In this document: in pieces, positions 15,964 to 63,132 of the stretch
Layout: each line of letters opens with the position of its first letter
How positions within the stretch are numbered: position 1 is the stretch's first letter
Origin: Calditrichaceae bacterium
GTDB lineage: Bacteria > Calditrichota > Calditrichia > Calditrichales > JBFXGD01
DNA length: 64,000 nucleotides
Assembly (NCBI GenBank): GCA_050173015.1
Contig: JBFXLE010000009.1
Span: 64,001-128,000 of the forward strand
Direction: 5' to 3'
The notes under the pieces: generated by a model
Told to the model about the DNA's origin: nothing
The model's database searches: none
What the model saw: the letters and a program-made list of their open reading frames with translations, nothing else
Position numbers and translations under genes: made by a program

Positions 15964-15983
15964 TTGTTTTATATGTAAAACAA
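15964..15983. promoter_or_regulatory. Candidate DtxR/MntR operator palindrome
   Basis: TTGTTTTA-TATG-TAAAACAA, a perfect 8-bp inverted repeat ~45 bp upstream of the regulator start. Confidence 0.5.
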
Positions 15984-41698: not shown

Positions 41699-41750
41699 CG
41701 GGTTACTTATCTGTTATACGCCGGTATCGACATAAGTATTGTATATAAGT

Positions 41751-42042
41751 TATAAACCGGAGGTTTGTCTTTTTGAAGACTCAGGGGTGGAAAGTATTCT
41801 GCCACAAGCATAGCAAATATTTTAAAAAAATCAGCTCAAAAAGCAGGAATAACAAAAACGATAACGCCGCCTACGCGGCGTTCTTGTTTTGCGACGCGGT
41901 TGCTTGCGCAGGGTAGGGATTTAAGGTATATTCAGGAGTAGTTAGGTCAAAATAGTCCCGGGAAGACTGAACTGCACCCGTTTCGAATAAGTCTATTGAT
42001 TGAATAAGGAATTCTGTTGATGATATTTTTGAAAAGGATTAG
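41751..42042 (+). pseudogene. Tyrosine recombinase C-terminal remnant, copy 1
   Basis: YKPEVCLFE / GGKYSATSIANILKKSAQKAGITKTITPPTRRSCFATRLLAQGRDLRYIQE*LGQNS...: box II (HxLRHSFATHLL...IQELLGH) with stops and frameshifts. Confidence 0.88.
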
Positions 42043-42059
42043 TTAATTGTAAAAAAAAT

Positions 42060-42131
42060 ATATAAACAATGGTTCATACACCGCCAATTTGGGGGGATAA
42101 GAACAATGGGATATATACGAACGTTATGGGC
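42060..42131 (+). repeat. attI-like site, copy 1
   Basis: Conserved ~65-bp block shared with 46508-46580 and 55378-55451; similarity ends at the GTT core (42123) where cassette 1 begins. Confidence 0.7.
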
Positions 42132-42254
42132 AAGGCAATGAAAGAAAACGCAATGGGAGTAATATTGTCAGGAAATAGAAAGTTGGAGACTAAAAATAGC
42201 TAATATAGATGAATGTTTTGAGAAAATAAAAATAGATTCTAAAGAGAAAATATT

Positions 42255-42761
42255 ATGAGTATATACACAGATAAAACATATGTTGCTTTTGATGCTGATA
42301 ATGATATCCACTACTACAGATTGATGCAAGCTTGGAAAAAAAATGATAATTCTTCATTTAACTTTTATGATGCTCACGATTTGAATAATTTGATGTCTTG
42401 GTCTTCAGAAGAAACAATAAAAGCGAGACTTGCTGAAAGAATGAAAAACTCAAAAGTCTTTATTTTACTTGTAGGAAATAACACAAAATTTCTATACAAA
42501 TTTGTTCGATGGGAAATTGATCAAGCTTTAAAAAGAGAAAAACCTATTATAGTTGTTAACTTAAATAAAAAGAGAAGCAGGGATACCGAACGATGTCCTG
42601 CTATTTTAAATAGTGAATTAGCGGTTCATATAAGTTTTAATCAAAAGATAATTGAATACGCAATAAATAATTGGCCTAGCTCTGAGGAGTATTACCGTAA
42701 GAACAATGAAAAAGGAGATTATTATTACAAAGATTCTGTTTATAAAGAATTAGGAATATGA
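42255..42761 (+). CDS. thsB: Thoeris ThsB TIR-domain protein (cassette 1)
   Basis: KTYVAFDADNDIHYYRLMQAWK...FNFYDAHDLN and FVRWEI with the catalytic Glu: MTH538-like TIR typical of type II Thoeris. Confidence 0.85.
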   Translation: MSIYTDKTYVAFDADNDIHYYRLMQAWKKNDNSSFNFYDAHDLNNLMSWSSEETIKARLAERMKNSKVFILLVGNNTKFLYKFVRWEIDQALKREKPIIVVNLNKKRSRDTERCPAILNSELAVHISFNQKIIEYAINNWPSSEEYYRKNNEKGDYYYKDSVYKELGI

Positions 42762-43663
42762 AAATGGGTATTTACAGATGGTTGTCGAAATATAAATCTA
42801 TCCTTACAGATTTGATGTCTGGTATAGGCCTTTTTTGGCTATTTGTTGAAATAGCAAGTTATTCGACAAATGGACAAATTGACAAATACACGAAAAGCAT
42901 AGCTTTTTTCTTAGTAGGGTTTGTATTAATCATTATTATAGTGCTAATAAAAAATAGGCCTAGAACATCTTTTTCCTATAAATTACGAGATAAAGATAAT
43001 TTCATAGAAGTTAAAGTAGGTGATGCTTTTGATAATAATGGAGCTTTAATAATTCCATTCAATAATTATCTTGATGTATCTCTCGGTGGTAATGTAAAAA
43101 AGGCTAATAGTCTGCAAAACAAACTTATAAAACAATATTATTTTGATAAAGAAGAACATTTAGTTCAAGATATTTTAAAAAAAACAAATCTAACTGCACC
43201 ATTTGATATTGGTACGACTGTAGAAATTGAACAAAAAGGTAAAAGTTTTTTTCTACTAGTTAATTCTCATAAAAAAGAAAATAACCGAGTTGTATCGACA
43301 GTTGATGACTTCTTATTGAGTTTATCGAAGGTTTGGGATTTCATTGCTTTGGAATCCGGAAGAAAAAGTATAGTAACAATTCCAATAATAAGTACAAATC
43401 ACGGCAGAATAACAGACTTAAACAGAATGAATGCGATAAAAGAAATTATTAATAGCTACGTTGAGGCTTCAAAGTTTCTAAATATTGCAGATAAATTGAT
43501 AATCAGCATTTTTCCAGACGATATAAATAAAGGAAATATTAAACTTGATGAAGTAGATGAATATTTAAAGTTTCAGTGTAATCATTATAGAAAAGTTCAT
43601 TTTTCACCTAAACTAGAAGGTAAAGAAGTAAGTCCTTCAGTTACAAAGGGTATTAATAATTAA
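42758..43663 (+). CDS. thsA: Thoeris type II effector ThsA (two TM helices plus Macro domain; cassette 1)
   Basis: Two N-terminal hydrophobic segments, then IEVKVGDAF...LIIPFNNYLD, IGTTV, IPIISTNHGR Macro-like motifs; overlaps thsB by 4 nt. Confidence 0.8.
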   Translation: MKMGIYRWLSKYKSILTDLMSGIGLFWLFVEIASYSTNGQIDKYTKSIAFFLVGFVLIIIIVLIKNRPRTSFSYKLRDKDNFIEVKVGDAFDNNGALIIPFNNYLDVSLGGNVKKANSLQNKLIKQYYFDKEEHLVQDILKKTNLTAPFDIGTTVEIEQKGKSFFLLVNSHKKENNRVVSTVDDFLLSLSKVWDFIALESGRKSIVTIPIISTNHGRITDLNRMNAIKEIINSYVEASKFLNIADKLIISIFPDDINKGNIKLDEVDEYLKFQCNHYRKVHFSPKLEGKEVSPSVTKGINN

Positions 43664-43721
43664 TTACAAGAATAATAGGAAATACAATAGGAAATTTTAA
43701 TTAAGGAAATTAAGAAGCCCA

Positions 43722-43856
43722 GCCCATAACAATGCATATACTTTATGGCGGGTTCCGTTATGAAAATGAGTATTTTAGTTTCAAATATAAATCAGTGTGG
43801 ACAGAAAGATTTGTCTTCCAAAGTCCGCCACAAAGCATATGCTTCCCGTTATGCAC
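43722..43856 (+). repeat. attC-like site 1
   Basis: GCCCATAAC...GTTATGCAC; inner arms GCATATACTTTATGGCGG / CCGCCACAAAGCATATGC. Confidence 0.85.
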
Positions 43857-43879
43857 AAGCTAAAAAAAGAATATAGTTA

Positions 43880-44737
43880 ATGATTATAATAAATGACAAG
43901 TCAATAGAGAAACTCAGAGACCTGATAAATGAAGAAACTGAATATCGGTCAGGTCCGAAACTCATCGAGTTTTTTAAAGACTTGGGCTTCAATGACTCTT
44001 ATGGTCAAGGATTTCCTTCTCGTTGGAAATATACTGATGATCGCCTTCGCAAAATTAACGGTAAACCAGAATTAGATAAGTGCATCAGAAAATTATTCAA
44101 TCCAGTTAATTTCATTGGCAAAACTTCTGAACTTGATAACCACATCAAAAATCTGAATCAATATTTAGCTTTTGATAAATGGCAGGTAGTTCGTAATGGT
44201 ACAGAAATAACTTTCAAAAAGAAAGATAAGGTTGAACTGCATGATGATTATGCAGAACTGAAAGCAGATGAATTTTTAGATAAAGAATTTGATGATATTT
44301 CAATAGATGCTCTAGGTCTTGATTCTATAGTTTCAGAAGTTCTCAAAATTCGTTTTGTAGAAATAAAGAATTGTTTTGCAGCAAAAGCACATTTGTCGGT
44401 CATTTTTCTTTCAGGCAGTAGTCTTGAAGGAATCCTACTAGGAATTGCTTTGAAGTCACCTACGGAATTCAACCAAGCTAAATCTGCACCTAAAGACAAG
44501 GAAGGCAAAGTCAAACAATTTCCTGATTGGACTTTGAGCCAACTAATTGACGTTACGTTTGAAGTTGGTCTCATCAAGGATGATGTGAAAAAATTTAGTC
44601 ATGCTCTTCGAGACTTCAGAAACTACATTCACCCATATCAGCAAGTAAGCTCGGGATTTAATCCTGATCACCATACAGCAAAAATTTGCTTTCAAGTATT
44701 GAAGGCAGGAGTATTTCAACTATCAAAAAACAAATAA
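43880..44737 (+). CDS. Putative AbiJ-like N-terminal domain plus HEPN-like C-terminal domain protein (cassette 2)
   Basis: N-terminal YRSGPKLIEFF...GFPSRWKYT; C-terminal SVIFLSGSSLEGIL...LRDFRNYIHP. Family assignment is from motif memory. Confidence 0.6.
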   Translation: MIIINDKSIEKLRDLINEETEYRSGPKLIEFFKDLGFNDSYGQGFPSRWKYTDDRLRKINGKPELDKCIRKLFNPVNFIGKTSELDNHIKNLNQYLAFDKWQVVRNGTEITFKKKDKVELHDDYAELKADEFLDKEFDDISIDALGLDSIVSEVLKIRFVEIKNCFAAKAHLSVIFLSGSSLEGILLGIALKSPTEFNQAKSAPKDKEGKVKQFPDWTLSQLIDVTFEVGLIKDDVKKFSHALRDFRNYIHPYQQVSSGFNPDHHTAKICFQVLKAGVFQLSKNK

Positions 44738-45076
44738 ATGGATACTACACAATTTAAAAACGGCTATTTCATTGAGAGAGTTTATCAACCAATCTCAGAA
44801 ACTGAATTCAAGTGTCGACTAATAGTTAAATCAAAGGCGAATAATCAAGAAATTACAGGAATAGAGACTAAAATAAATACCGTTGAGATTGGTCAGGGAT
44901 TAGCAGACTCACAATTTAGCGTTAATCCAATAAGTTGGGAGAGATATTTGAACCAGACAATTACAATGTTATTCAACATGTTGATGCTTCGTCTGAATAT
45001 TACCGACTTGCATAATGTTGACGGAGAAGATAAAATTTCTGAATTCTTTGACGAAAATCCGTTTCACCAAAATTAA
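44738..45076 (+). CDS. Hypothetical protein (cassette 2)
   Basis: 112-aa ORF abutting the upstream stop and ending 8 bp before attC-like site 2. Confidence 0.75.
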   Translation: MDTTQFKNGYFIERVYQPISETEFKCRLIVKSKANNQEITGIETKINTVEIGQGLADSQFSVNPISWERYLNQTITMLFNMLMLRLNITDLHNVDGEDKISEFFDENPFHQN

Positions 45077-45084
45077 AAAAGCCA

Positions 45085-45219
45085 GTGCCTAACATCGGCT
45101 ATAGCAAATGCGGGCTAAAGTGCTATAATGAAAGTAATTACACATAATAAACCAACTGCTAGTCGGACAAGTAAGTACCTTGAAACCCCGCACTTTCCAT
45201 AGCCATGACCGTTAGCTGC
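45085..45219 (+). repeat. attC-like site 2
   Basis: GTGCCTAAC...GTTAGCTGC; arms GGCTATAGCAAATGCGGG / CCCGCACTTTCCATAGCC. Confidence 0.85.
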
Positions 45220-45257
45220 AAGGTTAAGAGCGATACTGCAAAATTGAAAATTAAGAA

Positions 45258-46142
45258 ATGATTTTAGACTATTTAAATAAAACATTTAATAACAGAGAAA
45301 TCGTATTGATTTCCTATTTGACAATTTTCATTATATGGACACTTACACAGAAAAATATTAGACAGTCCATAGTGTCTGTGATTAAAGCATTTATGGCATG
45401 GAAGATACTTGTTTCAATATTTGTGTTGTTACTATATATTGCATTGATTGCTTTTGGATTATTTAAAATTGGACTTTGGGATAAATCCATGATTAAAGAT
45501 ACTGTTTATTGGACTTTTGGGGTCGGATTCATTATTATGATGAATTTTGACAAAGCATTGAAGGAAGAACACTATTTTAAGAACCTTGTCAAAGAAAATT
45601 TTAAAGTCCTTATAATCATTGAATTTATAGTTGGAATTTATGTTTTTGGTATCATCACTGAATTTATTTTAATGCCATTTGTGATTCTATTTTCAATGTT
45701 ATTAGGATACACTGAAGTTTATAAAGAGCATGGACAAGTTCGCAAATTTTTAAATGGAATCTTTGGCATCATAGGTACGATTTATTTAATTTATTCCGGT
45801 TATCATATTTACTCTGATTTTACTGGATTTGCAACTCTGGGGAATCTTAAAACATTTTTATTCCCTTTAATAATGTTTGTTCTATTTTTACCATTTGCAT
45901 ATTCCTTTGCACTATTGGCTCATTACGAGAGCTTATTCGTTCGATTAGGTTTTTTCCTTAAAGACAAAAAATTGAGAAGATTCGCTAAGTGGAGAATATT
46001 ATTGTCAGTAAATTTTAGCATTTTAAGATTAAAACGAATAACACCTGGAATGTTATTTAGTGACTGTTCTACTAGAGAAGATATAAAAAATGAGATAAAA
46101 AATAAAATAAACCCAGCAGCTAACACACAATATAGCCAATAA
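45258..46142 (+). CDS. Hypothetical polytopic membrane protein (cassette 3)
   Basis: 294 aa with about seven hydrophobic segments; the stop codon lies inside attC-like site 3. Confidence 0.8.
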   Translation: MILDYLNKTFNNREIVLISYLTIFIIWTLTQKNIRQSIVSVIKAFMAWKILVSIFVLLLYIALIAFGLFKIGLWDKSMIKDTVYWTFGVGFIIMMNFDKALKEEHYFKNLVKENFKVLIIIEFIVGIYVFGIITEFILMPFVILFSMLLGYTEVYKEHGQVRKFLNGIFGIIGTIYLIYSGYHIYSDFTGFATLGNLKTFLFPLIMFVLFLPFAYSFALLAHYESLFVRLGFFLKDKKLRRFAKWRILLSVNFSILRLKRITPGMLFSDCSTREDIKNEIKNKINPAANTQYSQ

Positions 46143-46254
46143 GGGTTTCAGTGGTATGCAAAGGGTTGTAGTGTAGCCCGCTCCAACTTTTCGTGTAACT
46201 TGATAGGAAATCACCCGCAATCCCTTACTGGCCATATTGTCAAGCGTTAGCTCC
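46116..46254 (+). repeat. attC-like site 3
   Basis: GCAGCTAAC...GTTAGCTCC; arms CAATATAGCCAATAAGGG / CCCTTACTGGCCATATTG. Confidence 0.85.
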
Positions 46255-46310
46255 AAGGCTAAAAAATAGAAACAAAAAGAATAAAATATTTGCCAAAAGG
46301 ATGAAAATAG

Positions 46311-46490
46311 AACGCCGCCTATGCGGCGTTATTGTTTTGCGACGCGGTTGCTTGCGCAGGGTACGGATTTAAGATATATTCAGGAGTAGTTATGTCATAT
46401 TAGTCCCGGGACGACTGAACTGCACACGTCTCAAATAAGTCAATTGATTGAATAAGGAATTCTGTTGATGATATTTTTGAAAGGGATTAG
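46311..46490 (+). pseudogene. Tyrosine recombinase C-terminal remnant, copy 2
   Basis: TPPMRRYCFATRLLAQGTDLRYIQE*L...; near-identical to 41863-42042. Confidence 0.85.
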
Positions 46491-46507
46491 TTAATCGTAA
46501 AAAAAAT

Positions 46508-46580
46508 ATATAAACAATTGTTCATATACCGCTGATTTGGGTGGATAAGAACAATAACATATACACGCACGTTAGGTTGC
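46508..46580 (+). repeat. attI-like site, copy 2
   Basis: TATATAAACAATTGTTCATA...GATAAGAACAATAACATATACACGCAC then GTTAGGTTGC (46571). Confidence 0.7.
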
Positions 46581-46595
46581 ATTAAAAAAGAAACC

Positions 46596-47180
46596 ATGAA
46601 ACTATATCACAGATACAACATAAAGAGAAAACAAGAACATTTATTTTTGGAGTTTATCTTGAATAATATTCCAGGAATAAATTATTTAAAAGAGAATTAT
46701 CGTCTTACAGAAAATGAATATGATTCATCAATTGAGATAAAACCCATAATTGATTCATTAAAAAATGACACTTGGTTACCAAAAAAGCGTAAACAAAATT
46801 GCATTGACATTTTACAGGACATTAAACTTAATCATGACAAGGTCGTAGTATTTGAATCGGTTAATAAAATATCATTTGATTTCACTATTAAAATAGATAG
46901 TGACTTGTTTTTCTTTGAATTACACGAAGACCAACACAAGAAGTTAAAAGTAAATAGACAGTCAAAAATATTTGATATCCAAGGAAATGAAATTTTTGTT
47001 CCTCGTTATTTACAAAGATTATTAAAGGATATTTGGCGCTGGGAGAATCTTGACAACTACAAGATAATTTGGGCTGACTGGTTTATTTCATCATCAAATA
47101 AACTTTCTAACTTGTTGGAAAAAGGAAAAATCGAATACGGAATAGATAATACATTTCAATTTAAAAACTTAGGAATATGA
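46596..47180 (+). CDS. Hypothetical protein, possible PD-(D/E)xK/Vsr-like nuclease (cassette 4)
   Basis: SFDFTIK...FFFELHEDQH and a later RLLKD resemble the D...ExDExQH pattern of DUF559/Vsr-like nucleases. Confidence 0.55.
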   Translation: MKLYHRYNIKRKQEHLFLEFILNNIPGINYLKENYRLTENEYDSSIEIKPIIDSLKNDTWLPKKRKQNCIDILQDIKLNHDKVVVFESVNKISFDFTIKIDSDLFFFELHEDQHKKLKVNRQSKIFDIQGNEIFVPRYLQRLLKDIWRWENLDNYKIIWADWFISSSNKLSNLLEKGKIEYGIDNTFQFKNLGI

Positions 47181-47844
47181 ATATTGAAGAATTGGAACAA
47201 AAGATTGCGAAACTTAGAAACGAAATAAAAAAGGATACTCTAGAACTTGAGAATGTTCCCGAAAGATTTATTTCAGTAATCAAAGGAGAACTGAAAACAA
47301 AAGAAGGTAGATTAATTGATTTGGAGTTAAAACTGGATGATTTAATTGAAAATGGAATTACTGATAGGCTGCAAAAGCCAATTGATGAATTACAAGAGAA
47401 AATTAAATCGTTTATTCTTGATTATCAATTTCAATATCCACAGGACAAAGAAATGTTTATCTATCAAATTGCATTTGAAGAAAATGATGATGAACTCTTG
47501 ATAAGCTTAAAACCAAAGGAAAAAACCACAAATCGATTGAACAAATACAACAAGGATTTACTAAAAGTTACAATAGAGAACAAAGTAATACAAGAACCAA
47601 AAGCTACTGACCTTTTATTAAGACTTTAAAGCACTTTTCAATTAAAAAAGTTAAATCACTTGACCTTGTATTCTTAGGAGTTCCCTTAATCGCTGAATAT
47701 AGCCATGACAAATATCAATAGAAACAAATATCAAACAACCTTTTCGTTTTGACTCAGATTTCCAAAGATAAAAAGAAAGAAATTCTTGAATATATTGCAG
47801 AAAAATTCAATCAGAGTATAAAAATCGAATTTGTGAAGAAATAA
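47177..47844 (+). pseudogene. Coiled-coil protein gene disrupted by a frameshift and an internal stop (cassette 4)
   Basis: Track ORF ends at 47629; restoring one base near 47611 continues ...TDTFIKTLKHF...GVPLIAEY...KYQ*(47719)KQI...KIEFVKK* to a TAA at 47842-47844 next to attC-like site 4. Confidence 0.65.
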
Positions 47845-47845
47845 C

Positions 47846-47982
47846 GCAACCTAGCACGCAATAAAAAACATAGGGCAGAAAGTGCAAAAATTGAACGACA
47901 TAACATTTAATAAACGACTTGGTAACTTGACAGGGAAGTGCTTCGAAATGCCAAACGTTTCATATACGTAACCGATAGCGTT
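47846..47982 (+). repeat. attC-like site 4 (degenerate cores)
   Basis: GCAACCTAGC (AAC to AGC) ... GATAGCGTT (GTT to GAT); arms still partly complementary. Confidence 0.75.
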
Positions 47983-48070
47983 CATTGTAAGGAGACAAAA
48001 CAACCGTCAGAATAATTATGGTATTTTTGCTGCATGAAGAAAAAAGAAAATATGGAAATAGCCACCGCAC

Positions 48071-48133
48071 AAATGGCATATTTGGTTTTTGCCGACGCAC
48101 AGCCAAACGCTGAAAAAACCAAAAGAGCCATTT
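48071..48133 (+). repeat. Inner hairpin motif H1 (5' end of cassette 5)
   Basis: AAATGGC-ATA-TTTGGTTTTT ... AAAAACCAAA-AGA-GCCATTT. Confidence 0.75.
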
Positions 48134-48163
48134 CTTGCCATCTCACGACTGAAAGATAATGAT

Positions 48164-51010
48164 ATGACAACATATAAAAATCAAAATCCTGAACAAATAG
48201 CCAGAGACAAAATTGACAAAATGTTAATTGAAGCTGGTTGGATTGTTCAATCTAAAAATGAAGTTGACTTGGGTGCAGGCAGAGGTGTTGCGTTGAGAGA
48301 ATACCAAACGGAAACAAAATTTGCGGATTATGTGCTGTTTGTTGACAAAAACCCTGTTGGAATTATTGAGGCAAAAAAAGAAGACGAAGGACATAAACTA
48401 ACCGTAGCGGAAGACCAAGCCTCTGAATATGCCAAAGCAAAACTAAAATATTTGGATAACGACCCATTGCCTTTTGTTTTTGAGAGTACCGGAACAATAA
48501 CCCGTTTTAGAGATACACGAGACCCAAAACCAAGAGGGCGACATATTTTTTGGTTTTACCGTCCCGAAACATTGGCGGAATGGCTACAAAAAGATAAAAG
48601 TTTAAGAGGTAGATTATTAGATATTCCGCAATTAAATGAGACTGGGCTTCGCCCTGCTCAAATTAAGGCGATTAATAACCTTGAACAATCTTTTAAAAAG
48701 AACAAGCCAAAAGCTTTAATACAAATGGCTACCGGAGCAGGTAAAACTTTTACTGCCTGTACTTTTGTGTATCGCTTATTGGAACACGCCAAAGCCAAAC
48801 GGATTTTATTTTTGGTTGACACCAAAAACTTAGGAGAACAAGCAGAACAGGAGTTTATGGCTTTTCAGCCCAACGACAGCAATCGCAAATTCACAGAATT
48901 GTATAATGTACAGCGTCTTACTTCAAGCTACATAGCAAGCGATAGTCAGGTTTGTATCTCTACCATTCAACGGATGTATGCCATTTTAAAAGGTGAAGAA
49001 CTAGACGAAGGAGCCGAAGATACAAACCCGAACGAATCGACCTGGATGGAACAACAGCGAAATAAAAAACAGGCAATGCCTGTGGAATATTCTGCCAAAG
49101 TACCCATTGAACAATTCGATTTTATTGTAATTGATGAATGCCACCGCTCTATTTACAATCTTTGGAAACAAGTGTTGGATTATTTCGATGCTTTCCTTAT
49201 CGGCTTAACTGCCACACCCGATAAGCGAACTTTTGGCTTTTTTGAGGAAAATGTAGTGAGCGAATATACCTATGAAGAATCTGTGTTGGATGGTGTAAAT
49301 GTTCCTTACGATGTGTACAATATTGAAACTGAAATTTCGCAAAAAGGCAGTGTGATAAAAGCAGGTTGGTTTGTGGACAGACGAGATAAGCTCACCCGAA
49401 AAACGCGTTGGCAACAAGAAGATGAAGACACCGAATATTTGAAAAACGATTTGGATAAAAAGGTCGTTAATCCAAGCCAGATACGGAATATTATTCGCCA
49501 ATACAAAAAAGCATTGGAAACCGAAATTTTCCCGAACAGAAAAGACGAAAATGGAGAATACGAAGTTCCTAAAACACTGGTTTTTGCAAAAACTGACAGC
49601 CACGCGGATGATATAATCAAAATCATTCGTAAAGAATTTGACGAAGGCGATGATTTCTGCAAAAAACTGACTTATAAAATAAAAGAAGACCCAAAATCGG
49701 TGTTAAACCGTTTTCGGAATTCATATCATCCCCGCATTGCGGTTACGGTAGATATGATTGCAACGGGAACCGATGTAAAACCTTTGGAAGTGTTGTTGTT
49801 TATGCGTGATGTTAAAAGCACCAACTACTTTGAACAAATGAAGGGTAGAGGAACACGCACCATTAACAAAGATGCTTTTCAGGCAAACAACACCAATGTA
49901 AAAGGGGCTTGCAAAACCCATTTTATTATTGTGGATGCAGTTGGCGTAACAAAGTCGAAGAAAACCGACAGCCGGCCTTTGGAACGCAAACCAACTGTAG
50001 CCTTAAAAGATTTATTGGGAGCGGTAACAATGGGAGTTACCGAAGAAGATTTGTTTCTTTCGCTTGCAAATCGTTTGATACGATTAGAAAAAGAAATTAC
50101 CGACAAGGAAAAAGATAAATTACTGGAACATTCCAAAGGCAAAAATCTGAAACAAATCAGCAAAGAATTATTATCGGCTTTTGATAAAGATGAAATTGAA
50201 AACAGAGCACAGGAAAAAATTGAAAAATTCTGTAAAGACGCCCTACAGGGCGTCTCTTCTGCTGCCGATTTATCTCCGGCACAAATAGAATCTTTCCGAC
50301 AGGACGCACAGAAAGAATTGATTAATACCGCCGCTTCTACTTTTAACGGAAAGCTGAACGATTATATTGAAAAAGTGCGTATGGAACACGAGCAAATTAT
50401 CGACAGCCACAATATCGACACCGTAACAAAATCGGAATGGGACACCGCTTCGGTGGATAAAGCCAAAGAAACTGTAAAAGATTTTAACGAATACCTCGAA
50501 GCCAATCAGGACGAGATAAAAGCATTGACCATTTTTTACAAACAACCCTACAACCGCCGAAACATTACCTTTAAAATGATTAAAGATGTGTTTGATAAAC
50601 TGAAATTGGATAAACCCACCCTTGCCCCCGATTATGTTTGGGCGGCATACAGCCAATTGGAAGAGGTAAAAAGCAAACAACCGATTGACGAACTCACCGC
50701 GTTAATTTCGTTAATTCGCAGGGCTTGCGGAATTGACAGCGAGTTGAAAGCTTTTGATTCCACCATTGACGAAAATTTCAAAAACTGGATTTTCAAACAA
50801 AACGCAGGCAAGCACAACCGCTTTACAACCGAACAAATGGACTGGCTGCGAGAACTGAAAAATCACGTAGTAAATTCGTATCACATAGAAATTGAAGACC
50901 TCGATTATACACCCTTTGATGAAAAAGGAGGACGTGGCAAAATGTACCAACTCTTTGGTGCCGAAATGAACGATATTATTAATGAACTTAACGAGGTATT
51001 AGCAGCATAA
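48164..51010 (+). CDS. hsdR: Type I restriction enzyme, R subunit (cassette 5)
   Basis: ADYVLF...IIEAKK nuclease motif, MATGAGKT, DECH, TATP, QMKGRGTR. ATG 48164 is preferred because the track start 48089 lies inside hairpin H1. Confidence 0.95.
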   Translation: MTTYKNQNPEQIARDKIDKMLIEAGWIVQSKNEVDLGAGRGVALREYQTETKFADYVLFVDKNPVGIIEAKKEDEGHKLTVAEDQASEYAKAKLKYLDNDPLPFVFESTGTITRFRDTRDPKPRGRHIFWFYRPETLAEWLQKDKSLRGRLLDIPQLNETGLRPAQIKAINNLEQSFKKNKPKALIQMATGAGKTFTACTFVYRLLEHAKAKRILFLVDTKNLGEQAEQEFMAFQPNDSNRKFTELYNVQRLTSSYIASDSQVCISTIQRMYAILKGEELDEGAEDTNPNESTWMEQQRNKKQAMPVEYSAKVPIEQFDFIVIDECHRSIYNLWKQVLDYFDAFLIGLTATPDKRTFGFFEENVVSEYTYEESVLDGVNVPYDVYNIETEISQKGSVIKAGWFVDRRDKLTRKTRWQQEDEDTEYLKNDLDKKVVNPSQIRNIIRQYKKALETEIFPNRKDENGEYEVPKTLVFAKTDSHADDIIKIIRKEFDEGDDFCKKLTYKIKEDPKSVLNRFRNSYHPRIAVTVDMIATGTDVKPLEVLLFMRDVKSTNYFEQMKGRGTRTINKDAFQANNTNVKGACKTHFIIVDAVGVTKSKKTDSRPLERKPTVALKDLLGAVTMGVTEEDLFLSLANRLIRLEKEITDKEKDKLLEHSKGKNLKQISKELLSAFDKDEIENRAQEKIEKFCKDALQGVSSAADLSPAQIESFRQDAQKELINTAASTFNGKLNDYIEKVRMEHEQIIDSHNIDTVTKSEWDTASVDKAKETVKDFNEYLEANQDEIKALTIFYKQPYNRRNITFKMIKDVFDKLKLDKPTLAPDYVWAAYSQLEEVKSKQPIDELTALISLIRRACGIDSELKAFDSTIDENFKNWIFKQNAGKHNRFTTEQMDWLRELKNHVVNSYHIEIEDLDYTPFDEKGGRGKMYQLFGAEMNDIINELNEVLAA
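50232..50259. repeat. Degenerate REP palindrome in frame inside hsdR
   Basis: GTAAAGACGCCC-TACA-GGGCGTCTCTTC, translated as CKDALQGVSS. Confidence 0.7.
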
Positions 51011-52548
51011 TGAGAGAAGATTGGATTGACGTTGAATTAAAAGATGTTTGCCTAAGTTCAAAGGGAAAGAAACCAAGTGTTTTAGAAAAAAATAATTCTG
51101 AAACTGCTAATGTGCCATATATAAATATCAAAGCTTTTGAGAAAGGTATAATAGAAGAATACACTGATGGTGAAAAATGCAATTTATGTGAAGATGGTGA
51201 CTTGTTAATGGTTTGGGATGGTGCAAGGGCTGGGCTTACAGGTAAAGCTAAAAAAGGTGCTGTTGGTTCAACACTAATGAGAATTGAAGAAGTAAAAGGT
51301 ATTGAAAAGGAATATTTATATTATTTTCTTTTATCACTTTTTACAAAGATTAATACAAATCCAAGAGGTGTTGGTATTCCACATGTTGAACCACGAATAC
51401 TATGGTTGTCAAAAGTATTAATTGTTAGCAGTCCCATCCAACGAGCAATAGTATCCAAAATCGAAGCCCTGTTTTCCGATTTGGACAACGGCATCGCCAA
51501 TTTAAAAAAAGCACAGGAGCAATTAAAAATATACCGTCAAGCGGTTTTGAAAAAGGCCTTTGAGGGCGAACTCACAAAAGAATGGCGTGAAAAGATTGTA
51601 CAGACGCCCAATTTGGGCGTATCAACGCCCCTGCCAACAGCCGAAGAACTGCTAAAACAAATAAAAGAAGAACGCCAAAACCACTACAACCAACAAATTG
51701 AAGACTGGAAAAAAGCGGTTAAGGAATGGGAGAAAAATGGGAAAGTTGGGAAGAAGCCAAGTAAGCCTAAGCAGCAAAAAGAATTGCCACCTTTAAATGA
51801 GGAAGAATTGAATGAGCTGCCGAAATTGCCAAAGTCAATGGTATGGACACAACTTGGAAATGTGGTTTGGTCTGTAAAAGATGGACCTCATTTTAGCCCT
51901 AAATATTCAAAAACTGGTATACCCTTTATCTCAGGTGGGAATATTAGACCAGAAAAAATTGACTTTGAAAAAGTAAAATATATTTCAGAAGAGCTTCATA
52001 AGGAACTAAGTCGAAGATGTAAACCACAATTAGATGACATTCTATACACCAAAGGCGGAACAACTGGAATTGCAAAAGTTAATACATATAAATTTGATTT
52101 TAATGTTTGGGTGCATGTAGCAGTATTAAGACCAATCCAAATGATTTTACCATTATATTTACAACATGTTTTAAATTCTTCTCATTGTTATAAACAATCG
52201 CAAGAATATACACATGGGGTTGGTAATCAAGATTTAGGTTTAACAAGAATGATTTTAATCACACTGCCTATTTGTTGTAAAGAAGAACAAACCCAAATCG
52301 TCCAAGAAATAGAAAGCCGTTTATCGGTTTGCGACAAAGTAGAGCAAAGCATAACCGAAAGCCTTGAAAAAGCCGAAGCCCTTCGCCAAAGCATTCTTAA
52401 AAAAGCATTTGAGGGCAAATTATTAAGCGAAGCTGAAATAGAACAATGCAAAAAGGCAGCCGATTACGAACCTGCGGCAAAATTGTTGGAACGAATAAAA
52501 CAGGAAAAAATAAATAAGGATAATAATAAAAAAACAAAATCAAAATAA
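51010..52548 (+). CDS. hsdS: Type I restriction enzyme, S subunit (cassette 5)
   Basis: Two TRDs with repeated conserved blocks Q..IVS.IE...RQAVLKKAFEGEL and EQTQIVQEIE...RQSILKKAFEGKL. Confidence 0.94.
   Translation: MREDWIDVELKDVCLSSKGKKPSVLEKNNSETANVPYINIKAFEKGIIEEYTDGEKCNLCEDGDLLMVWDGARAGLTGKAKKGAVGSTLMRIEEVKGIEKEYLYYFLLSLFTKINTNPRGVGIPHVEPRILWLSKVLIVSSPIQRAIVSKIEALFSDLDNGIANLKKAQEQLKIYRQAVLKKAFEGELTKEWREKIVQTPNLGVSTPLPTAEELLKQIKEERQNHYNQQIEDWKKAVKEWEKNGKVGKKPSKPKQQKELPPLNEEELNELPKLPKSMVWTQLGNVVWSVKDGPHFSPKYSKTGIPFISGGNIRPEKIDFEKVKYISEELHKELSRRCKPQLDDILYTKGGTTGIAKVNTYKFDFNVWVHVAVLRPIQMILPLYLQHVLNSSHCYKQSQEYTHGVGNQDLGLTRMILITLPICCKEEQTQIVQEIESRLSVCDKVEQSITESLEKAEALRQSILKKAFEGKLLSEAEIEQCKKAADYEPAAKLLERIKQEKINKDNNKKTKSK
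51598..51626. repeat. Degenerate REP palindrome in frame inside hsdS
   Basis: GTACAGACGCCCAATTTGGGCGTATCAAC, translated as VQTPNLGVST. Confidence 0.8.
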
Positions 52549-52599
52549 TTGTGAAACGCGTTGGACGTATTTGTCGCATTTGACGCGTTGGACGCATTG

Positions 52600-52628
52600 G
52601 TAGAGACGCCCAATTTGGGCGTCTCTAC
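52600..52628. repeat. GTAG-type REP palindrome upstream of the RAYT
   Basis: GTAGAGACGCCCAA-T-TTGGGCGTCTCTAC, perfect 14-bp arms. Confidence 0.88.
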
Positions 52629-52700
52629 GACGACGATCCCTACGATCCCGATCCCGACGACGACAATATCGTTCACGTTCACAATAACGAAAACAAAAAT

Positions 52701-53312
52701 ATGCCCGATAAATTTCAAAACAAATACCGCATACCATCGGCACGATTGCAAACATGGGATTATGGAAGCAATGGAACCTATTTTATAACCATTTGCACCC
52801 AAAACCGTGAACATTATTTTGGTGAAATTACAGACGGTAATATGATATTATCCGAAATAGGAATTTTGGCGAACAAATATTGGAATGAAATACCAGAACA
52901 TTTTCCATTTGTCAATTTGGATGAATTTGTGGTAATGCCCAACCACGTGCATGGGATTATTATCATTGATAAACCCGATGATGGACGGGATGATGGGCGG
53001 GACGTTGGACGGGACGTTGGACGGGACGTAGAGACGCCCAAATTGGGCGTCTCTACCAATACCAATACCAATACCAATACCAATCATCAAACCGCCACGG
53101 CATCCGAAAAATGGAAACCGGCATCATTGGGGGTAATTATCAACCAATATAAACGAATGGCAACCATTAAATCGCGTAAAATCCACGCTGATTTTGGTTG
53201 GCAATCCCGTTTTTACGACCAGATCATACGAAACAACGAATCGTATGAAAAAATCAGAAATTATATTGTCAACAACCCATTGAAATGGGAAGAAGATAAA
53301 TTTTACAATTAA
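52701..53312 (+). CDS. REP-associated tyrosine transposase (RAYT, Y1 HUH family)
   Basis: SARLQTWDY...YFITICT, VVMPNHVHGII (HUH), WQSRFYDQIIRN...YIVNNP. Confidence 0.92.
   Translation: MPDKFQNKYRIPSARLQTWDYGSNGTYFITICTQNREHYFGEITDGNMILSEIGILANKYWNEIPEHFPFVNLDEFVVMPNHVHGIIIIDKPDDGRDDGRDVGRDVGRDVETPKLGVSTNTNTNTNTNHQTATASEKWKPASLGVIINQYKRMATIKSRKIHADFGWQSRFYDQIIRNNESYEKIRNYIVNNPLKWEEDKFYN
53028..53056. repeat. GTAG-type REP palindrome in frame inside the RAYT gene
   Basis: GTAGAGACGCCCAA-A-TTGGGCGTCTCTAC (VETPKLGVST), flanked by 12-bp and 6-bp tandem repeats. Confidence 0.88.
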
Positions 53313-53327
53313 ATTGAAAGAAATAAT

Positions 53328-54848
53328 ATGTCAGAAAGTGCAATAGTATCAAAAGTGTGGAATTTCGCCAATGTTCTTAGAGACGATGGAGTGGGTTATG
53401 GTGATTATTTAGAGCAAATCACCTATTTGCTTTTCCTAAAAATGGCAGACGAACTTAACAAACCGCCCTACAATAAAGGTTTAAAATTTCCGAAACTCAA
53501 AAATGCTGAGGGTGTTGAATTGCCCGATGCCGAAACCTGCGACTGGCAAACGCTGTCGCAAAAACGTGGTTTGGAATTGGAAAATTTTTACAACCAAATG
53601 CTACGAAGTTTGGGAAGCGAAAAAGGAACGTTGGGGCAAATTTTCGTAAAAAGTCAAAACAAAATACAAGACCCATCAAAACTCTTAAAAATCATTGATA
53701 TGATTGATAAAGAGCAATGGAGCTTAATGGGAACCGATGTAAAAGGGAAAATTTACGAAGGTCTTTTAGAGAAAAATGCCGAAGACACCAAAAGCGGTGC
53801 AGGGCAATATTTTACGCCTCGTTCGCTCATCAAAACAATGGTGGCTTGTGTTCGTCCCAAACCCATGAAAACCATTATAGACCCTGCTTGTGGCACTGGC
53901 GGTTTCTTTTTGGCAGCTTACGATTATATCAAAAGTCAGAATTTAGACCAGGAAGAAAAGGAGTTTTTGAAAAACAAAACTTTCTACGGAAACGAAATTG
54001 TAGCCAATACACGCAGAATGTGTTTGATGAACATGTTTTTGCACAACATTGGCGAAATTGATGGCGAAACACTCATTTCTTCAGCTGATGCTTTGGTTTC
54101 GGACAATGGCATACGCTACGATTATGTGCTGGCAAATCCGCCTTTTGGTAAAAAAAGCAGTATGACCATTACCAACGAAGAGGGCAAACTGGAAAAGCAG
54201 GATTATACTATCAATCGTCAGGATTTTGTGGCTACCACAGCCAACAAGCAACTAAACTTTTTGCAACACATAAAAACGCTTTTAAAACTCACAGGCGAAG
54301 CAGCCGTTGTACTTCCCGATAATGTTTTGTTTGAGGGCGGAGCAGGCGAAACGGTTCGGAAAGAATTGATGAAAACAACCGAATTGCATACAATTTTAAG
54401 ACTTCCAACAGGTATATTTTACGCACAAGGTGTAAAAGCAAATGTTTTGTTTTTCGACAACAAACCAGCTTCAAAAGAGGCTTGGACAAAAGATGTTTGG
54501 ATTTATGATTATCGAAGTAACATAAGCCACACATTAAAGAAAAACCCAATGCGATTTGAGCATCTACAGGAATTCGTAAAACTCTACAATCCCGAAAACC
54601 GAAATAAAAGAACAGAAACGTGGAGCGAAACAAATCCCGAAGGCAGATGGAGAAAGTATAGTTATGCTGAAATCATTGAACGAGATAAAACCAACTTGGA
54701 TATATTTTGGATTAAAGACAAAAGCTTAACCGACTTAGATAATTTACCCGACCCCGATATTTTGGCAAACGAAATCATTGAAAACATTGAAGCCGGATTA
54801 AATAGTTTTAAAGAAATAATGGAAACAATAAACGGAGATGAAAGCTAA
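53328..54848 (+). CDS. hsdM: Type I restriction-modification N6-adenine methyltransferase (cassette 5)
   Basis: GQYFTPR, DPACGTGGF, NPPF, LRLPTGIF. Confidence 0.96.
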   Translation: MSESAIVSKVWNFANVLRDDGVGYGDYLEQITYLLFLKMADELNKPPYNKGLKFPKLKNAEGVELPDAETCDWQTLSQKRGLELENFYNQMLRSLGSEKGTLGQIFVKSQNKIQDPSKLLKIIDMIDKEQWSLMGTDVKGKIYEGLLEKNAEDTKSGAGQYFTPRSLIKTMVACVRPKPMKTIIDPACGTGGFFLAAYDYIKSQNLDQEEKEFLKNKTFYGNEIVANTRRMCLMNMFLHNIGEIDGETLISSADALVSDNGIRYDYVLANPPFGKKSSMTITNEEGKLEKQDYTINRQDFVATTANKQLNFLQHIKTLLKLTGEAAVVLPDNVLFEGGAGETVRKELMKTTELHTILRLPTGIFYAQGVKANVLFFDNKPASKEAWTKDVWIYDYRSNISHTLKKNPMRFEHLQEFVKLYNPENRNKRTETWSETNPEGRWRKYSYAEIIERDKTNLDIFWIKDKSLTDLDNLPDPDILANEIIENIEAGLNSFKEIMETINGDES

Positions 54849-54863
54849 GCCCAGCCCAAAAAC

Positions 54864-54921
54864 CATACACATTTGCAATTCGCGCGAGCCAACGCTTGAC
54901 CAAAAATTGCAAAAGAGTATG
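54864..54921 (+). repeat. Inner hairpin motif H2 (3' end of cassette 5)
   Basis: CATAC-ACA-TTTGCAATT ... AATTGCAAA-AGA-GTATG. Confidence 0.75.
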
Positions 54922-54990
54922 TCTTGCCAACGCACGGACAGAGAATGCAGCAAAAATGAAAGATAAATTGGCTGGAAAAATAAACAACGA

Positions 54991-55123
54991 AACGCTAACA
55001 CGCGGTATAAAACATTGGGGTTTAAGTATTTATTCGAGCGTTCTACCCCGCATCAAGTTCGGTGTAACTCGACAGGATAGTAGCCCGCAATCCCTTACGA
55101 GTCATACACTCAAAGTTAGTTCC
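54991..55123 (+). repeat. attC-like site 5
   Basis: AACGCTAAC...GTTAGTTCC; shares CCCGCAATCCCTTAC with site 3 and CGCAATCCCTTAC with site 7. Confidence 0.82.
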
Positions 55124-55179
55124 AAGCCTAAAAAATAGAAACAACAAGAATAAAATATTTGCCAAAAGGATGAAAATAG

Positions 55180-55361
55180 AACGCCGCCTATGCGGCGTTA
55201 TTGTTTTGCAACGCGGTTGCTTGCACAGGATAGGGATTTAAGGTATATTCAGGAGTAGTTAGGTCATAATCGTTCCGGGACTACTGAAATTTGCGCACAT
55301 CTCAAAAAAGTCTATTGATAAAAACAGTAATCCTACGGATGATATCTTTGAAAGGGATTAG
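55180..55361 (+). pseudogene. Tyrosine recombinase C-terminal remnant, copy 3
   Basis: TPPMRRYCFATRLLAQDRDLRYIQE*LGHNRSGTTEICAH: the catalytic Tyr position reads Cys. Confidence 0.87.
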
Positions 55362-55377
55362 ATAATTGTAAAAGAAA

Positions 55378-55451
55378 TATATAAACAATTGTTCATACAC
55401 CGCCAATTTGGGCGGATAAGAACAATAGAATATATACGAACGTTGTGTGGC
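55378..55451 (+). repeat. attI-like site, copy 3
   Basis: TATATAAACAATTGTTCATACACCGCCAATTTGGGCGGATAAGAACAATAGAATATATACGAAC then GTTGTGTGGC (55442). Confidence 0.7.
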
Positions 55452-55484
55452 ATTAGAAGTAACTTACATAAAAAAGGGTGACTT

Positions 55485-56072
55485 ATGGAAATAAAATTTG
55501 ATGTGGAAATACAAGATGAAGAGAAAGAACTTCTGAAAACGATATTACATTGTGATAATGATGAAGACTTAAATAATCTCTTGAATAAATTAGGCCGTTC
55601 TTCATTTGAAGATATTAGAAGAATGACAATTGGACAAAAAGTATTTACTCGTGGAAGAGATATTTTAGAATATCGGTTATTTAATTTAATAAAGTTTTTC
55701 TTCGATGGGAAAATACCAGACGAACAAAAAATATGTGATTTATTCCAAATAACGGCAACTGAAAGTCGAGCATTTATTCGCTCAATAATGTCAAAGTATC
55801 AATATGACTTAAAAGAAACAATATCTTCAACATTAAAAGAACAAGTAGAAAATATTCAAAAAGAAGAAAATGAAGAAGTTTATAAACTTTCCATTCAAAA
55901 CCAGTATTTCAAAGATGAATTAAATAGAATATTAGGAACAATAGACACAAGTTTACCGATTATTGAAAAAGAGCGGGGAACTATTTCTACTTATGTAATT
56001 CAAACATCATCTTACCAGAAGTTATGTGAACATTTTGGCATTGAACTAGAAGAAGAAAACAATGAAAACTGA
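55485..56072 (+). CDS. Hypothetical protein with possible HTH (cassette 6)
   Basis: 195 aa; PDEQKICDLFQITATESRAFIR is HTH-like. Confidence 0.75.
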   Translation: MEIKFDVEIQDEEKELLKTILHCDNDEDLNNLLNKLGRSSFEDIRRMTIGQKVFTRGRDILEYRLFNLIKFFFDGKIPDEQKICDLFQITATESRAFIRSIMSKYQYDLKETISSTLKEQVENIQKEENEEVYKLSIQNQYFKDELNRILGTIDTSLPIIEKERGTISTYVIQTSSYQKLCEHFGIELEEENNEN

Positions 56073-56481
56073 TTTACCTAATTTATTAACTGCATCAAGT
56101 ATTCTATTGGGAATTATTACTGCATTATATGGTTTATTTTTTCCTGCGATTAATTCAATTTTAGTAATAAAATCTAAGCCCCATAAGGTTGATAATAAGA
56201 AGGCCTACAGTGAAAGCAAGGATATTATAAAAGCAAAATATATTCCATTATTAATTGGTTCGTTAGTAATTACATTGATAAACATACCAGAGCTGTTTTC
56301 TCAATTAAGAAATAGTTTTGTTGCAATAAAAACTAGTGGAATAGAGAACACAACATATGATACGTTAACAGCATCATTTATTGTCGTTTGCCTTTTTATG
56401 ATTTTCATTACGATAATGATGATAGCAACTGGTTTTAAGTTAAGAAAGAAAATAAAAGAACTTAATCCAAATGAACAATAA
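56062..56481 (+). CDS. Hypothetical membrane protein, about three TM helices (cassette 6)
   Basis: 139 aa, overlaps the upstream gene; stop lies 1 bp before attC-like site 6. Confidence 0.78.
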   Translation: MKTDLPNLLTASSILLGIITALYGLFFPAINSILVIKSKPHKVDNKKAYSESKDIIKAKYIPLLIGSLVITLINIPELFSQLRNSFVAIKTSGIENTTYDTLTASFIVVCLFMIFITIMMIATGFKLRKKIKELNPNEQ

Positions 56482-56482
56482 C

Positions 56483-56619
56483 GCCACACAACAAAAAATA
56501 TAGTGCATTTGGCAGATGGTGCTAAAAATGAAAATGATTGCAATAAATGAACATAGTAGTAAATTGAAAGCTTGGAGCGTTGAAATGCCAAACGCACCAT
56601 ATTCAAACCGTTGTATGCC
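56483..56619 (+). repeat. attC-like site 6
   Basis: GCCACACAAC...GTTGTATGCC; arms AATATAGTGCATTTGGCA / TGCCAAACGCACCATATT. Confidence 0.85.
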
Positions 56620-56643
56620 ATGCTGGAAACGAGCTAACCGCAC

Positions 56644-56705
56644 AAATAGCACATTTGGTTATTGCTGACACAAAAGCAAAGGCTGAAAAACTAAAAGAGC
56701 TATTT
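56644..56705 (+). repeat. Inner hairpin motif H3 (5' end of cassette 7)
   Basis: AAATAGC-ACA-TTTGGTT ... AACTAAA-AGA-GCTATTT; homologous to H1. Confidence 0.75.
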
Positions 56706-56737
56706 TATTGTCAAACGCACATAGACTAAAACTAAAA

Positions 56738-62809: not shown

Positions 62810-62831
62810 CCATGAATCCAAACGCTCGCAT

Positions 62832-62893
62832 CCATACACATTGGCAAATCGCACAGGACAGCCACACCAGCCAAAATTTGCCAAAGAGTATGG
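62832..62893 (+). repeat. Inner hairpin motif H4 (3' end of cassette 7)
   Basis: CCATAC-ACA-TTGGCAAAT ... ATTTGCCAA-AGA-GTATGG; homologous to H2. Confidence 0.75.
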
Positions 62894-62932
62894 CTGCACC
62901 AACGCCGCCAGAAAAGAAAATGAAAAAGCACG

Positions 62933-63059
62933 GGCATACAACAATGTGTATAATTCATAAGGGTTTCAGCGGATTGCAAGCCGTATCACCCGCATCAAAT
63001 TCGGGTGGTAACTTGATAAGTAAAAAGTTCGCAATCCCTTACGAATCATAGTTAGCTCC
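62933..63059 (+). repeat. attC-like site 7 (right spacer deleted)
   Basis: GGCATACAAC...GTTAGCTCC; arms TATAATTCATAAGGG / CCCTTACGAATCATA joined directly to GTT. Confidence 0.8.
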
Positions 63060-63132
63060 AAGGCTAAAAAATAGAAACAAAAAGAATAAAATGTTTGCCA
63101 AAAGAATAGAAATAAAAGCCACCGCACAGTAA

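Follow-up and report, generated by a model that had tools for sequence, protein, structure and literature searches.

Repeated attI-type units built on dead integrase debris in an integron-type defence array of a Calditrichaceae bacterium

Three direct copies of a module composed of dead integrase debris and an attI-type element, each followed by different cassettes, have been identified in a 64,000-nt stretch of the Calditrichaceae bacterium genome (assembly GCA_050173015.1, contig JBFXLE010000009.1, positions 64,001–128,000 of the forward strand; hereafter the window, numbered from its first letter). The modules lie in a 23.8-kb island, from window 41701 to window-equivalent 65465, organized as an integron-type cassette array. 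We consider it probable (about 0.7 for the complete explanation) that this is a sedentary, integron-type array carrying anti-phage defence in a Calditrichales chromosome, and that the 3' end of its integrase–attI platform has given rise to an attI-type unit that lacks an open reading frame (ORF) and would have been moved by a recombinase acting in trans.

A repeat search and a four-way alignment place the copies at 41798–42139, 46246–46587 and 55115–55458 (83–93% identity to the reference copy), with core repeated blocks at 41863–42125, 46311–46573 and 55180–55444; a fourth, partial copy at 63046–63117 consists of the 66–72-nt tail alone. In six-frame translation one frame per copy corresponds to the C-terminus of a tyrosine recombinase, and the same lesions recur in all three, namely TPPTRRS for TPHxLRHS, ATRLL for ATHLL and a TAG stop in IQE*L (copy 1 reads ...KAGITKTITPPTRRSCFATRLLAQGRDLRYIQE*LGQ...). 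An earlier note on this DNA had described three modules with the same lesions, and the search, the alignment and the translation agree with it. The components of the modules are as follows.

41699–42042, + strand: copy 1 remnant, a 5'-truncated dead tyrosine recombinase corresponding approximately to residues 160–278 of the 278-aa intact relative P0001 (see below), with in-frame similarity to the integrases of loci L013, L048, L049 and L045
41863–41882, + strand: GC-rich 8-bp hairpin with a T-rich run, terminator-like on both strands; equivalents at 46311–46330 and 55180–55199
42043–42125, + strand: attI-type element of copy 1, with a conserved leader, a 16-pair imperfect hairpin and the core ACG|TT, G at 42123
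46247–46571, + strand: copy 2 (M2), 325 nt, no ORF; tail 46247–46310, hairpin and remnant 46311–46490, element 46491–46573
55116–55442, + strand: copy 3 (M3), 327 nt, no ORF; tail 55116–55179, hairpin and remnant 55180–55361, element 55362–55444

By alignment with intact relatives, copy 1 is integrase-derived from about 41716, directly behind the stop codon of an M49 peptidase gene, through 42042, and its remnant holds stops and a 4-nt deletion. The hairpin, a perfect 8-bp GC stem (AACGCCGCCTAYGCGGCGTT plus a T-run), marks the point where the homology common to the three copies begins, and arose through substitutions in the former TPHxLRH codons; the hairpins of the copies are the top-ranked among 20 terminator-like sites of the region, compared to 10.2 +/- 2.8 such sites in shuffled sequences. 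M2 and M3 have G|TT on both borders and contain integrase debris alone, with stops and frameshifts and no functional ORF. The tail, which the earlier note took for a ~55-bp module end, is a real repeat (64 nt in M2 and M3, 88–90% alike), and forms the 5' start of copies 2 and 3, which share an identical truncation junction between tail and hairpin. An IS91-type or other transposon end was considered, and nothing of such kind adjoins the copies. Homology between the copies stops at GTT, the G being at 42123, 46571 and 55442, so that the divergence at the GTT core described earlier is seen here as well as between strains (below).

We compared 91 alignment columns uniform both within five dead copies (three from the window and two from a sister strain) and within a set of four intact relatives and one other remnant. 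In 13 of these columns the five dead copies have a derived state in common, including the TAG stop and the substitutions that build the hairpin. These shared states, together with the common tail–hairpin junction of copies 2 and 3, support the claim of the earlier note that the integrase was dead before the module multiplied.

The intergenic gaps of the array contain long imperfect palindromes beginning ...TAAC or CAAC and ending GTT..., and the crossover G was placed at 42123, 43848, 45211, 46246, 46571, 47974, 55115, 55442, 56610 and 63051. According to the integron border rule, the first bases of a cassette are complementary to the R'' box of its own attC; scored over 10 bases, all seven ORF-bearing cassettes reach 8–10, while mismatched pairings have a mean of 5.7 and a maximum of 8. 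The R'' box lies 119–132 nt before the cassette end, and the seven attC-like sites span 119–132 nt. In folding, the bottom strand has lower energy than the top one in attC1 (–22.9 vs. –18.2 kcal/mol), attC2 (–17.3 vs. –11.1 kcal/mol) and attC6 (–16.8 vs. –13.3 kcal/mol; z –4.0). Our own criterion for an array lacking its integrase was at least two attC sites without an intact integrase nearby; we count seven attC-like sites and the dead remnant only. The cassettes are 1.0–7.1 kb in size, with a type I restriction-modification (R-M) system and a NACHT gene each constituting a single cassette.

42124–43848, + strand: cassette A, Thoeris, with ThsB (TIR, 1e-73) and ThsA (Macro, 1.7e-39) identified by PADLOC; genes 42255–43663; attC 43721–43848, 128 nt; border rule 9/10
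43849–45211, + strand: cassette B, 285-aa ORF (weak match to the N-terminus of an Stk2-like kinase) and 112-aa ORF; attC 45084–45211; 8/10
45212–46246, + strand: cassette C, 294-aa ORF with no assigned function; attC 46115–46246; 9/10
46572–47974, + strand: cassette D, 194-aa and 150-aa ORFs with no assigned function; attC 47846–47974 with a degenerate R' (GAT); 9/10
47975–55115, + strand: cassette E, type I R-M system of 7.1 kb with hsdR, hsdS, a 203-aa ORF and hsdM; attC 54990–55115; 8/10
55443–56610, + strand: cassette F, 195-aa and 139-aa ORFs with no assigned function; attC 56483–56610; 10/10
56611–63051, + strand: cassette G, 2033-aa NACHT/STAND protein, Avs1b-like (PADLOC, 2.4e-39); attC 62933–63051; 10/10
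63052–64000, + strand: terminal segment with the third tail (63052–63117), a palindromic leader and a VWA-domain gene; the island continues to window-equivalent 65465

The starts of M2 and M3 match R'' at 5 and 6 bases out of 10, that is, at the background level, and since they have no R'' partner, the recombination site of these units is not an attC. For the same reason we ruled out the element as the attC of an ORF-less cassette. The + strand carries every gene from 42.2 kb to the window end, and the GC content falls from approximately 0.42–0.45 to 0.29–0.39. Gene functions were assigned with Pfam and PADLOC.

Comparison with other strains delimits the island and shows what has changed within it. 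A genome of the same genus (G001) has an empty site, comprising the M49 peptidase gene, about 130 nt, and then a major facilitator superfamily gene; the right end of the island is the point where homology to this genome resumes. No direct repeat was found at the island borders (41699–41716 and window-equivalent 65392–65470). The motif GTTATACGC lies within 17 nt of the left border, and also begins several element-bearing stretches in relatives. A pattern derived from the hairpin retrieved two metagenome contigs, one of which, L127, comes from a sister strain: over its initial 718 nt this contig is 96.7% identical to the end of the peptidase gene plus copy 1, and homology ends behind ACGTTATG, the strains diverging after copy 1 behind GTTATG. 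Approximately 5.2 kb further on, L127 has a unit 95% identical to M3, whose start coincides exactly with the G|TTAG of another attC and which runs to ACG|TT, so that both flanks of this unit differ from those in the window from exactly the two GTTs. Behind copy 1, L127 has PRTase-CE with NADAR as well as a TmtA-like 1050-aa protein, and behind the M3-like unit, the mod and res genes of a type III R-M system; the border rule holds in three of its three cassettes at 8–9/10. In both strains together, at least five different well-formed cassettes abut dead modules. Defence systems thus cluster in a variable region (Thoeris, type I R-M and the Avs1b-like gene in the window) that is absent in G001 and holds other systems in L127. 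The strain comparison that the earlier note called for has therefore yielded both an empty site and other cassettes starting exactly at the GTTs. Two sequencing runs hold the locus, and contigs of one of them, X2, cover, with differences, 41400–50934 and 53092–54880, reaching into the type I R-M cassette; nothing covers 57336–61300, and no joint across this gap was seen, which is a hint of a strain without the NACHT cassette in this run.

The element occurs in relatives next to intact integrases, and the array-heading position held here by a dead remnant is occupied in equivalent arrays by intact 278-aa tyrosine recombinases. Searching 60 related genomes and the source genome, we obtained matches in 12 of the 61 genomes (the source genome included), mostly to the non-coding element alone. 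At locus L013, an uncultured Calditrichaceae contig, the element begins 12 nt behind the intact 278-aa recombinase P0001, and an ORF and then an attC come next. Screening of species genomes recovered 531 relatives among 600 candidate stretches; 80 loci were kept, from Calditrichaceae, Ignavibacteriales, Melioribacteraceae, Spirochaetaceae and many Bacteroidota. In a profile search the element is found directly behind the integrase stop in 7 of the 80 loci, and all seven belong to the ten loci whose identity is 66% or more. Among the remaining three, the sequence available downstream is shorter than 50 nt in two, while the 235 nt available in L051 hold no match. Each of these seven platforms has one plus-strand match of the element at the platform, and the intact platforms with the element head attC arrays, with the recombinase co-oriented with the cassettes. 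Cassette junctions fall at the GTT of the element, and from these junctions we infer its use as an insertion point. The view of the repeated block as integrase debris plus an attI-type site is thus borne out by the same arrangement behind intact enzymes.

The enzyme itself is of a different type than the platform described in the earlier note would suggest: the attI-type element stands, while the recombinase is not a canonical IntI. P0001 passes the NF040815 model ("XerA / integron integrase") with 238.7 bits at a cut-off of 220, and remains below the cut-off of TIGR02249 (214.3 vs. 265 bits, with the match in two stretches). With XerA structures it can be aligned over its full length, and residues 182–244 of IntI4 (2a3v) are opposite P0001 residues 181–200 only. 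Based on these scores and alignments, P0001 lacks the additional domain characteristic of IntI (around patch III, with the I2 helix).

A crude attC scanner yielded 13 matches on three contigs compared to 3 in shuffled sequences, while missing the clear sites of L048. Around the 80 integrases it gave 0.26 matches per kb downstream and 0.09 per kb upstream, a weak indication given its low sensitivity and specificity; at least one match was seen downstream in 29 of 39 loci and upstream in 31 of 69.

The element is better conserved than the debris that precedes it. Over 26 aligned copies, 80.8% of cells in its hairpin are paired, compared to 34–56% when the partner strand is slid, and the element keeps all 15 invariant columns of this alignment. 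Between old dead lineages (the three copies here against the C5 copy described below or the remnant in G044), the debris is 61–64% alike and the 78-nt element 83–95%, whereas among intact genes the two parts are conserved alike (72–80% in the integrase part, 68–78% in the element). This difference suggests constraint acting on the element after the integrase death.

Copies of the element alone, free of integrase debris, are seen in L011, L012, L014–L019 and L023–L026, which are relatives at the order or class level, at 30–50 nt before ORF starts, and many of the ORFs behind them begin in a signal-peptide-like manner. An automated look directly upstream of 12 element-only copies revealed a clear attC in L017 and possible ones in L014 and L015, with nothing clear in the rest; as it is clear in L017 only, we make no general claim that element-only copies are cassettes. 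In L049, a Melioribacteraceae metagenome-assembled genome with an intact integrase, the three-cassette block directly behind the element is duplicated in tandem (region 8963–16000; block 8963–12592, and again from 12593), so that block duplication in such arrays happens beside a live integrase too.

The search of the source genome for further copies and for an intact recombinase, proposed earlier, succeeded in its first part. There are exactly five element copies, all with integrase debris: the three described here, C5:153649–153888 and C43:2444–2688. The C5 copy (region C5:153560–165000) has no TAG, reading ...FQELLGHNSSKTTEIYTHVS..., and stands at the head of another array, in which at least five attC-like sites and a cassette with a DNA methylase were seen. 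No cassette belongs to the C43 copy (C43:2444–2760), and a 502-aa gene is situated directly behind it. As regards the recombinase, no cognate one was found, the best full-length matches to P0001 having 34% (C19, 302 aa), 36% (C10, 315 aa) and 28% identity (C16).

We propose the following explanation. A resident short XerA-like recombinase, with an attI-type element directly behind its stop codon, has died and lost its 5' end, leaving copy 1. After its death, a piece of the platform probably became a 325-nt ORF-less unit consisting of the leader or tail, the hairpin, about 180 nt of debris and a complete docking element. Such a unit would in effect be a cassette with attI in place of attC as its recombination site, and is found twice more inside the array. 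When an attC is followed by an attI in direct orientation, recombination between them would release a circle with everything between the two G|TT points, which could re-enter at any attC or attI; as the integrase and its attI are co-oriented, the excised piece would carry integrase 3' sequence. For the copies and the neighbouring cassettes, the mover would then have been another recombinase from this family, acting in trans, with homologous recombination and gene conversion adding to the shuffling. The simplest reading, as in the earlier note, is indeed a recombinase in trans, given the G|TT crossovers at both borders of M2 and M3, the border rule, the other cassettes of the sister strain at the same GTTs and the lack of a cognate enzyme in the genome. 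Since the truncated unit cannot encode an enzyme and the genome does not provide one, an integrase would have to act in trans, whether within this lineage or within a donor whose array was later acquired by recombination. The docking element presumably persists owing to a continuing function, which may be that of an entry site or of a part of an expression module.

Among the alternatives, a misjoining of three separate loci through the repeat, as feared in the earlier note, is by far the least credible one. Logan contigs do break within the repeats; still, the copies are 7–15% different and hence are not collapsible, in contigs from two public runs every copy is continuous with the cassette behind it (42005–46151, 46453–47885 and 55237–61300), and one more (46123–46472) bridges attC3, the tail and copy 2. 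Moreover, L127, which comes from an independent metagenome, reproduces the links peptidase–copy 1 and attC–tail–copy 3 on one molecule, 5.2 kb apart. For these reasons a misassembly of the three copies is unlikely. It is also improbable that no site-specific activity followed the integrase death, the copies having arisen by segmental duplication or unequal crossing-over and the cargo having been swapped only by homologous exchange of whole blocks, with the modules and the flanking core genes as anchors. Mosaic single-nucleotide polymorphisms (SNPs) do point to gene conversion, the ~330-nt repeats at 85–95% identity are adequate substrates, and the genome has no cognate recombinase, all of which this scenario would accommodate; what it cannot produce is a new junction precisely at G|TT. 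To the left of copy 3, the two strains have different attCs up to the very G. M2 and M3 each stand behind an attC of their own, the cassettes after them are not the same and obey the border rule, and the variety of cassettes abutting dead modules is likewise difficult to obtain by homologous exchange.

The role of the internal copies is a separate matter, as the junctions would fit both additional entry sites and passengers or promoter modules. It is possible, at less than even odds, that each dead module has served as a working entry site behind which the cassettes were captured one by one after the multiplication, resulting in three insertion points for a foreign recombinase. Consistent with that, well-formed cassettes, matching their own R'' at 8–10/10, directly follow each of the three copies as well as both copies of the sister strain, the first cassette behind copy 1 differs between the strains, and the element is conserved in its invariant columns and beyond the debris. 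On the other hand, insertion of the 325-nt unit itself at an existing attC would give identical junctions, so that the moving partner cannot be told from them; the change of both flanks of copy 3 in the sister strain fits a moving unit at least as well, and in each of the seven intact platforms found for the family there is just one element. Accordingly, of the claim that each copy gained its own cargo, the difference in cargo stands, and its capture by landing pads does not follow from the junctions. A tentative and rather doubtful alternative has recombination secondary, with the unit resetting transcription in a long array: the hairpin would terminate it, a promoter in the integrase 3' end would restart it, and the element would act as a 5' leader. 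Here the shared homology begins exactly at the top-ranked terminator-like hairpin, which was built by several codon substitutions; sigma-70-like hexamers (TTGATA or TTGATT ... GATGAT, 17-nt spacing, 8–9 of 12 positions) occur 46–48 nt before the element hairpin, being found at that distance in 11 of 13 scanned integrase- or remnant-linked copies (in L049 and L046 the best match is elsewhere, and the row for L127b is mis-anchored); and in relatives the element is situated 30–50 nt ahead of ORF starts. However, the hexamers fall within conserved codons (AIDxI...IDDFF), so that their conservation may be protein-driven, the best hexamer match in element-only copies is a different one, and the region has no excess of promoters (54 compared to 56.1 +/- 7.8 in shuffles) under a sigma-70-like consensus, which may not be that of Calditrichota.

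Several observations weigh against the proposed explanation of an ORF-less attI-type unit moved in trans. No cognate recombinase was found in the source genome, which is 97.5% complete, and every movement is read from junctions. The extra domain of IntI, held necessary for folded attC substrates (PMC7790495), is missing from the intact relatives, and handling of the attC-like sites by this family is therefore putative. The tail–remnant junction is not at GTT, and the explanation does not account for it. The left junction of copy 2 is like that of copy 3, while its interior, including the 4-nt deletion, resembles copy 1, with which it also has the 3' half in common (92.8% in the debris); copy 3 has a 2-nt deletion where copies 1 and 2 have the 4-nt one. 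As the SNP patterns are mosaic, we dropped a simple tree of the copies; together with the mixed affinities of copy 2 they indicate a reticulate history with gene conversion between the copies, which blurs the order of events. The history outlined in the earlier note thus holds in that the platform was copied after its death, and has to be corrected by a contribution of homologous recombination. Covariation in the element hairpin is modest (6 double-change pairs, a value reached in 31 of 500 shuffles), and gene conversion or recent transfer, rather than selection, could partly underlie the conservation of the element.

Some further features of the array are worth mentioning. A second family of palindromic repeats (CATACACATTTGCAA ... 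TTGCAAAAGAGTATG; fold z –2.1 to –4.9) is present at 54849–54940, 62830–62900 and 63118–63200, where long palindromes are situated directly behind hsdM, the NACHT gene and the third tail, respectively; shorter ones at 48040–48088 and 56620–56700 serve as brief leader segments ahead of hsdR and of the NACHT gene. The family may consist of degenerate attC sites, or of leaders and trailers shared by the two large cassettes. A GC-rich palindromic stretch (GAGACGCCCAATTTGGGCGTCTC) at 52549–52700, between hsdS and the 203-aa ORF (52701–53312), together with this ORF, which has a faint match to IS200/Y1 transposases (E 0.005), may represent an insertion within the R-M cassette resembling repetitive extragenic palindromes and their associated transposases (REP/RAYT). 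The ORF pairs of cassettes D and F are not homologous to each other and have no Pfam match, and on these grounds a capsule-type leader (UpxY/UpxZ) and a regulator pair of a polysaccharide utilization locus (PUL) were rejected for them. No structured RNA was identified in the whole window by Rfam at the gathering thresholds.

Arrays with a dead integrase are not new. Cury et al. are said to have described, in 2016, sedentary chromosomal integrons with an inactivated integrase and clusters of attC sites lacking integron integrases (CALINs), and integrons with a decayed intI are known in Xanthomonas. The array studied here resembles them in its chromosomal position, the uniform attC length, the dead or missing integrase and strain-specific cassettes, and differs in having further copies of the dead platform among its cassettes, which are defence operons of large size (up to 7.1 kb), and in an integrase family with no IntI domain. 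The position of attI is also familiar, as there is an "inverted integrase" group of integrons, e.g., in Treponema. In archaeal integrons a putative attI with a canonical insertion point is located immediately downstream of the co-oriented integrase gene (Ghaly et al., 10.1101/2022.02.06.479319). Both groups are similar to our platforms in this respect, and their integrases, as far as described, have the IntI-specific additional domain, whereas P0001 does not. Defence systems packaged as integron cassettes were reported for Vibrio-type integrons with a canonical IntI and mostly small cassettes, Bacteroidota being among the clades earlier found to be without integrons (Darracq et al., 10.1101/2024.07.02.601686); in the searched passages of that study Thoeris does not occur (0 occurrences) and repeated attI modules are not mentioned.

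The closest known structures are the ΔattI-type, or "unusual", cassettes of class 1 and 2 mobile integrons, having the form attC-...-ΔattI with a piece of attI that ends in the GTT core; variants with 244 nt or with the complete 65-bp attI exist, and the cassettes are excised and inserted by the integrase IntI1 (Gonzales Machuca et al., 2026, PMC12901181). M2 and M3 have a similar structure, attC-G|TT...element-ACG|TT, with an attI-derived 3' site and no attC. The ΔattI cassettes described in that paper carry a functional ORF (resistance genes), whereas the units observed here are ORF-less with about 180 nt of dead integrase, have a terminator-like hairpin and a complete element of about 80 nt, are present in three copies in a chromosomal defence array of Calditrichota, and their cognate enzyme is absent and of another type. 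Judging by their structure, M2 and M3 are an extreme form of ΔattI-type cassettes. Among the titles and abstract openings surveyed, we encountered no account of attC arrays served by an integrase that lacks the extra domain, or of repeated integrase–attI modules, which does not prove their absence from the literature. Hence, dead-integrase arrays, defence cassettes, attI downstream of intI and ΔattI-type cassettes are already known, and what is new here is the ORF-less attI-type unit derived from the dead 3' end of the platform itself and repeated three times, the strain-level exchange of large defence cassettes at the GTT of this unit, and an integron-type recombinase family without the IntI domain.

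An integron is usually pictured as having one entry site beside a live integrase; in contrast, here three docking sites are seated on the debris of a dead one, and the site is conserved while the debris decays. Starting from the same crossover bases, two close strains have completely different defence repertoires, Thoeris, type I R-M and Avs in one of them and PRTase-NADAR, TmtA-like and type III R-M in the other. This makes the array a testable case of cassette exchange in trans after the integrase loss, of attI-type cassettes beyond the clinical class 1 and 2 integrons, and of large multi-gene defence systems moving as single cassettes. It also adds to the evidence that a common XerA-like family without the IntI domain serves arrays of the integron type in Calditrichota, Ignavibacteriota and Bacteroidota. 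Such platforms would then escape the standard integron finders, which usually require the IntI-specific domain. One may speculate, although we hold it rather unlikely in its full form, that the 3' end of the platform has been domesticated as a non-autonomous "attI cassette" that combines a terminator hairpin, a promoter or leader and a docking site, and is copied through arrays by integrases from other cells or phages, splitting long defence arrays into separately expressed and separately exchangeable blocks with several entry points. If true, it would be a modular device for swapping defence systems that still works after the death of the resident integrase.

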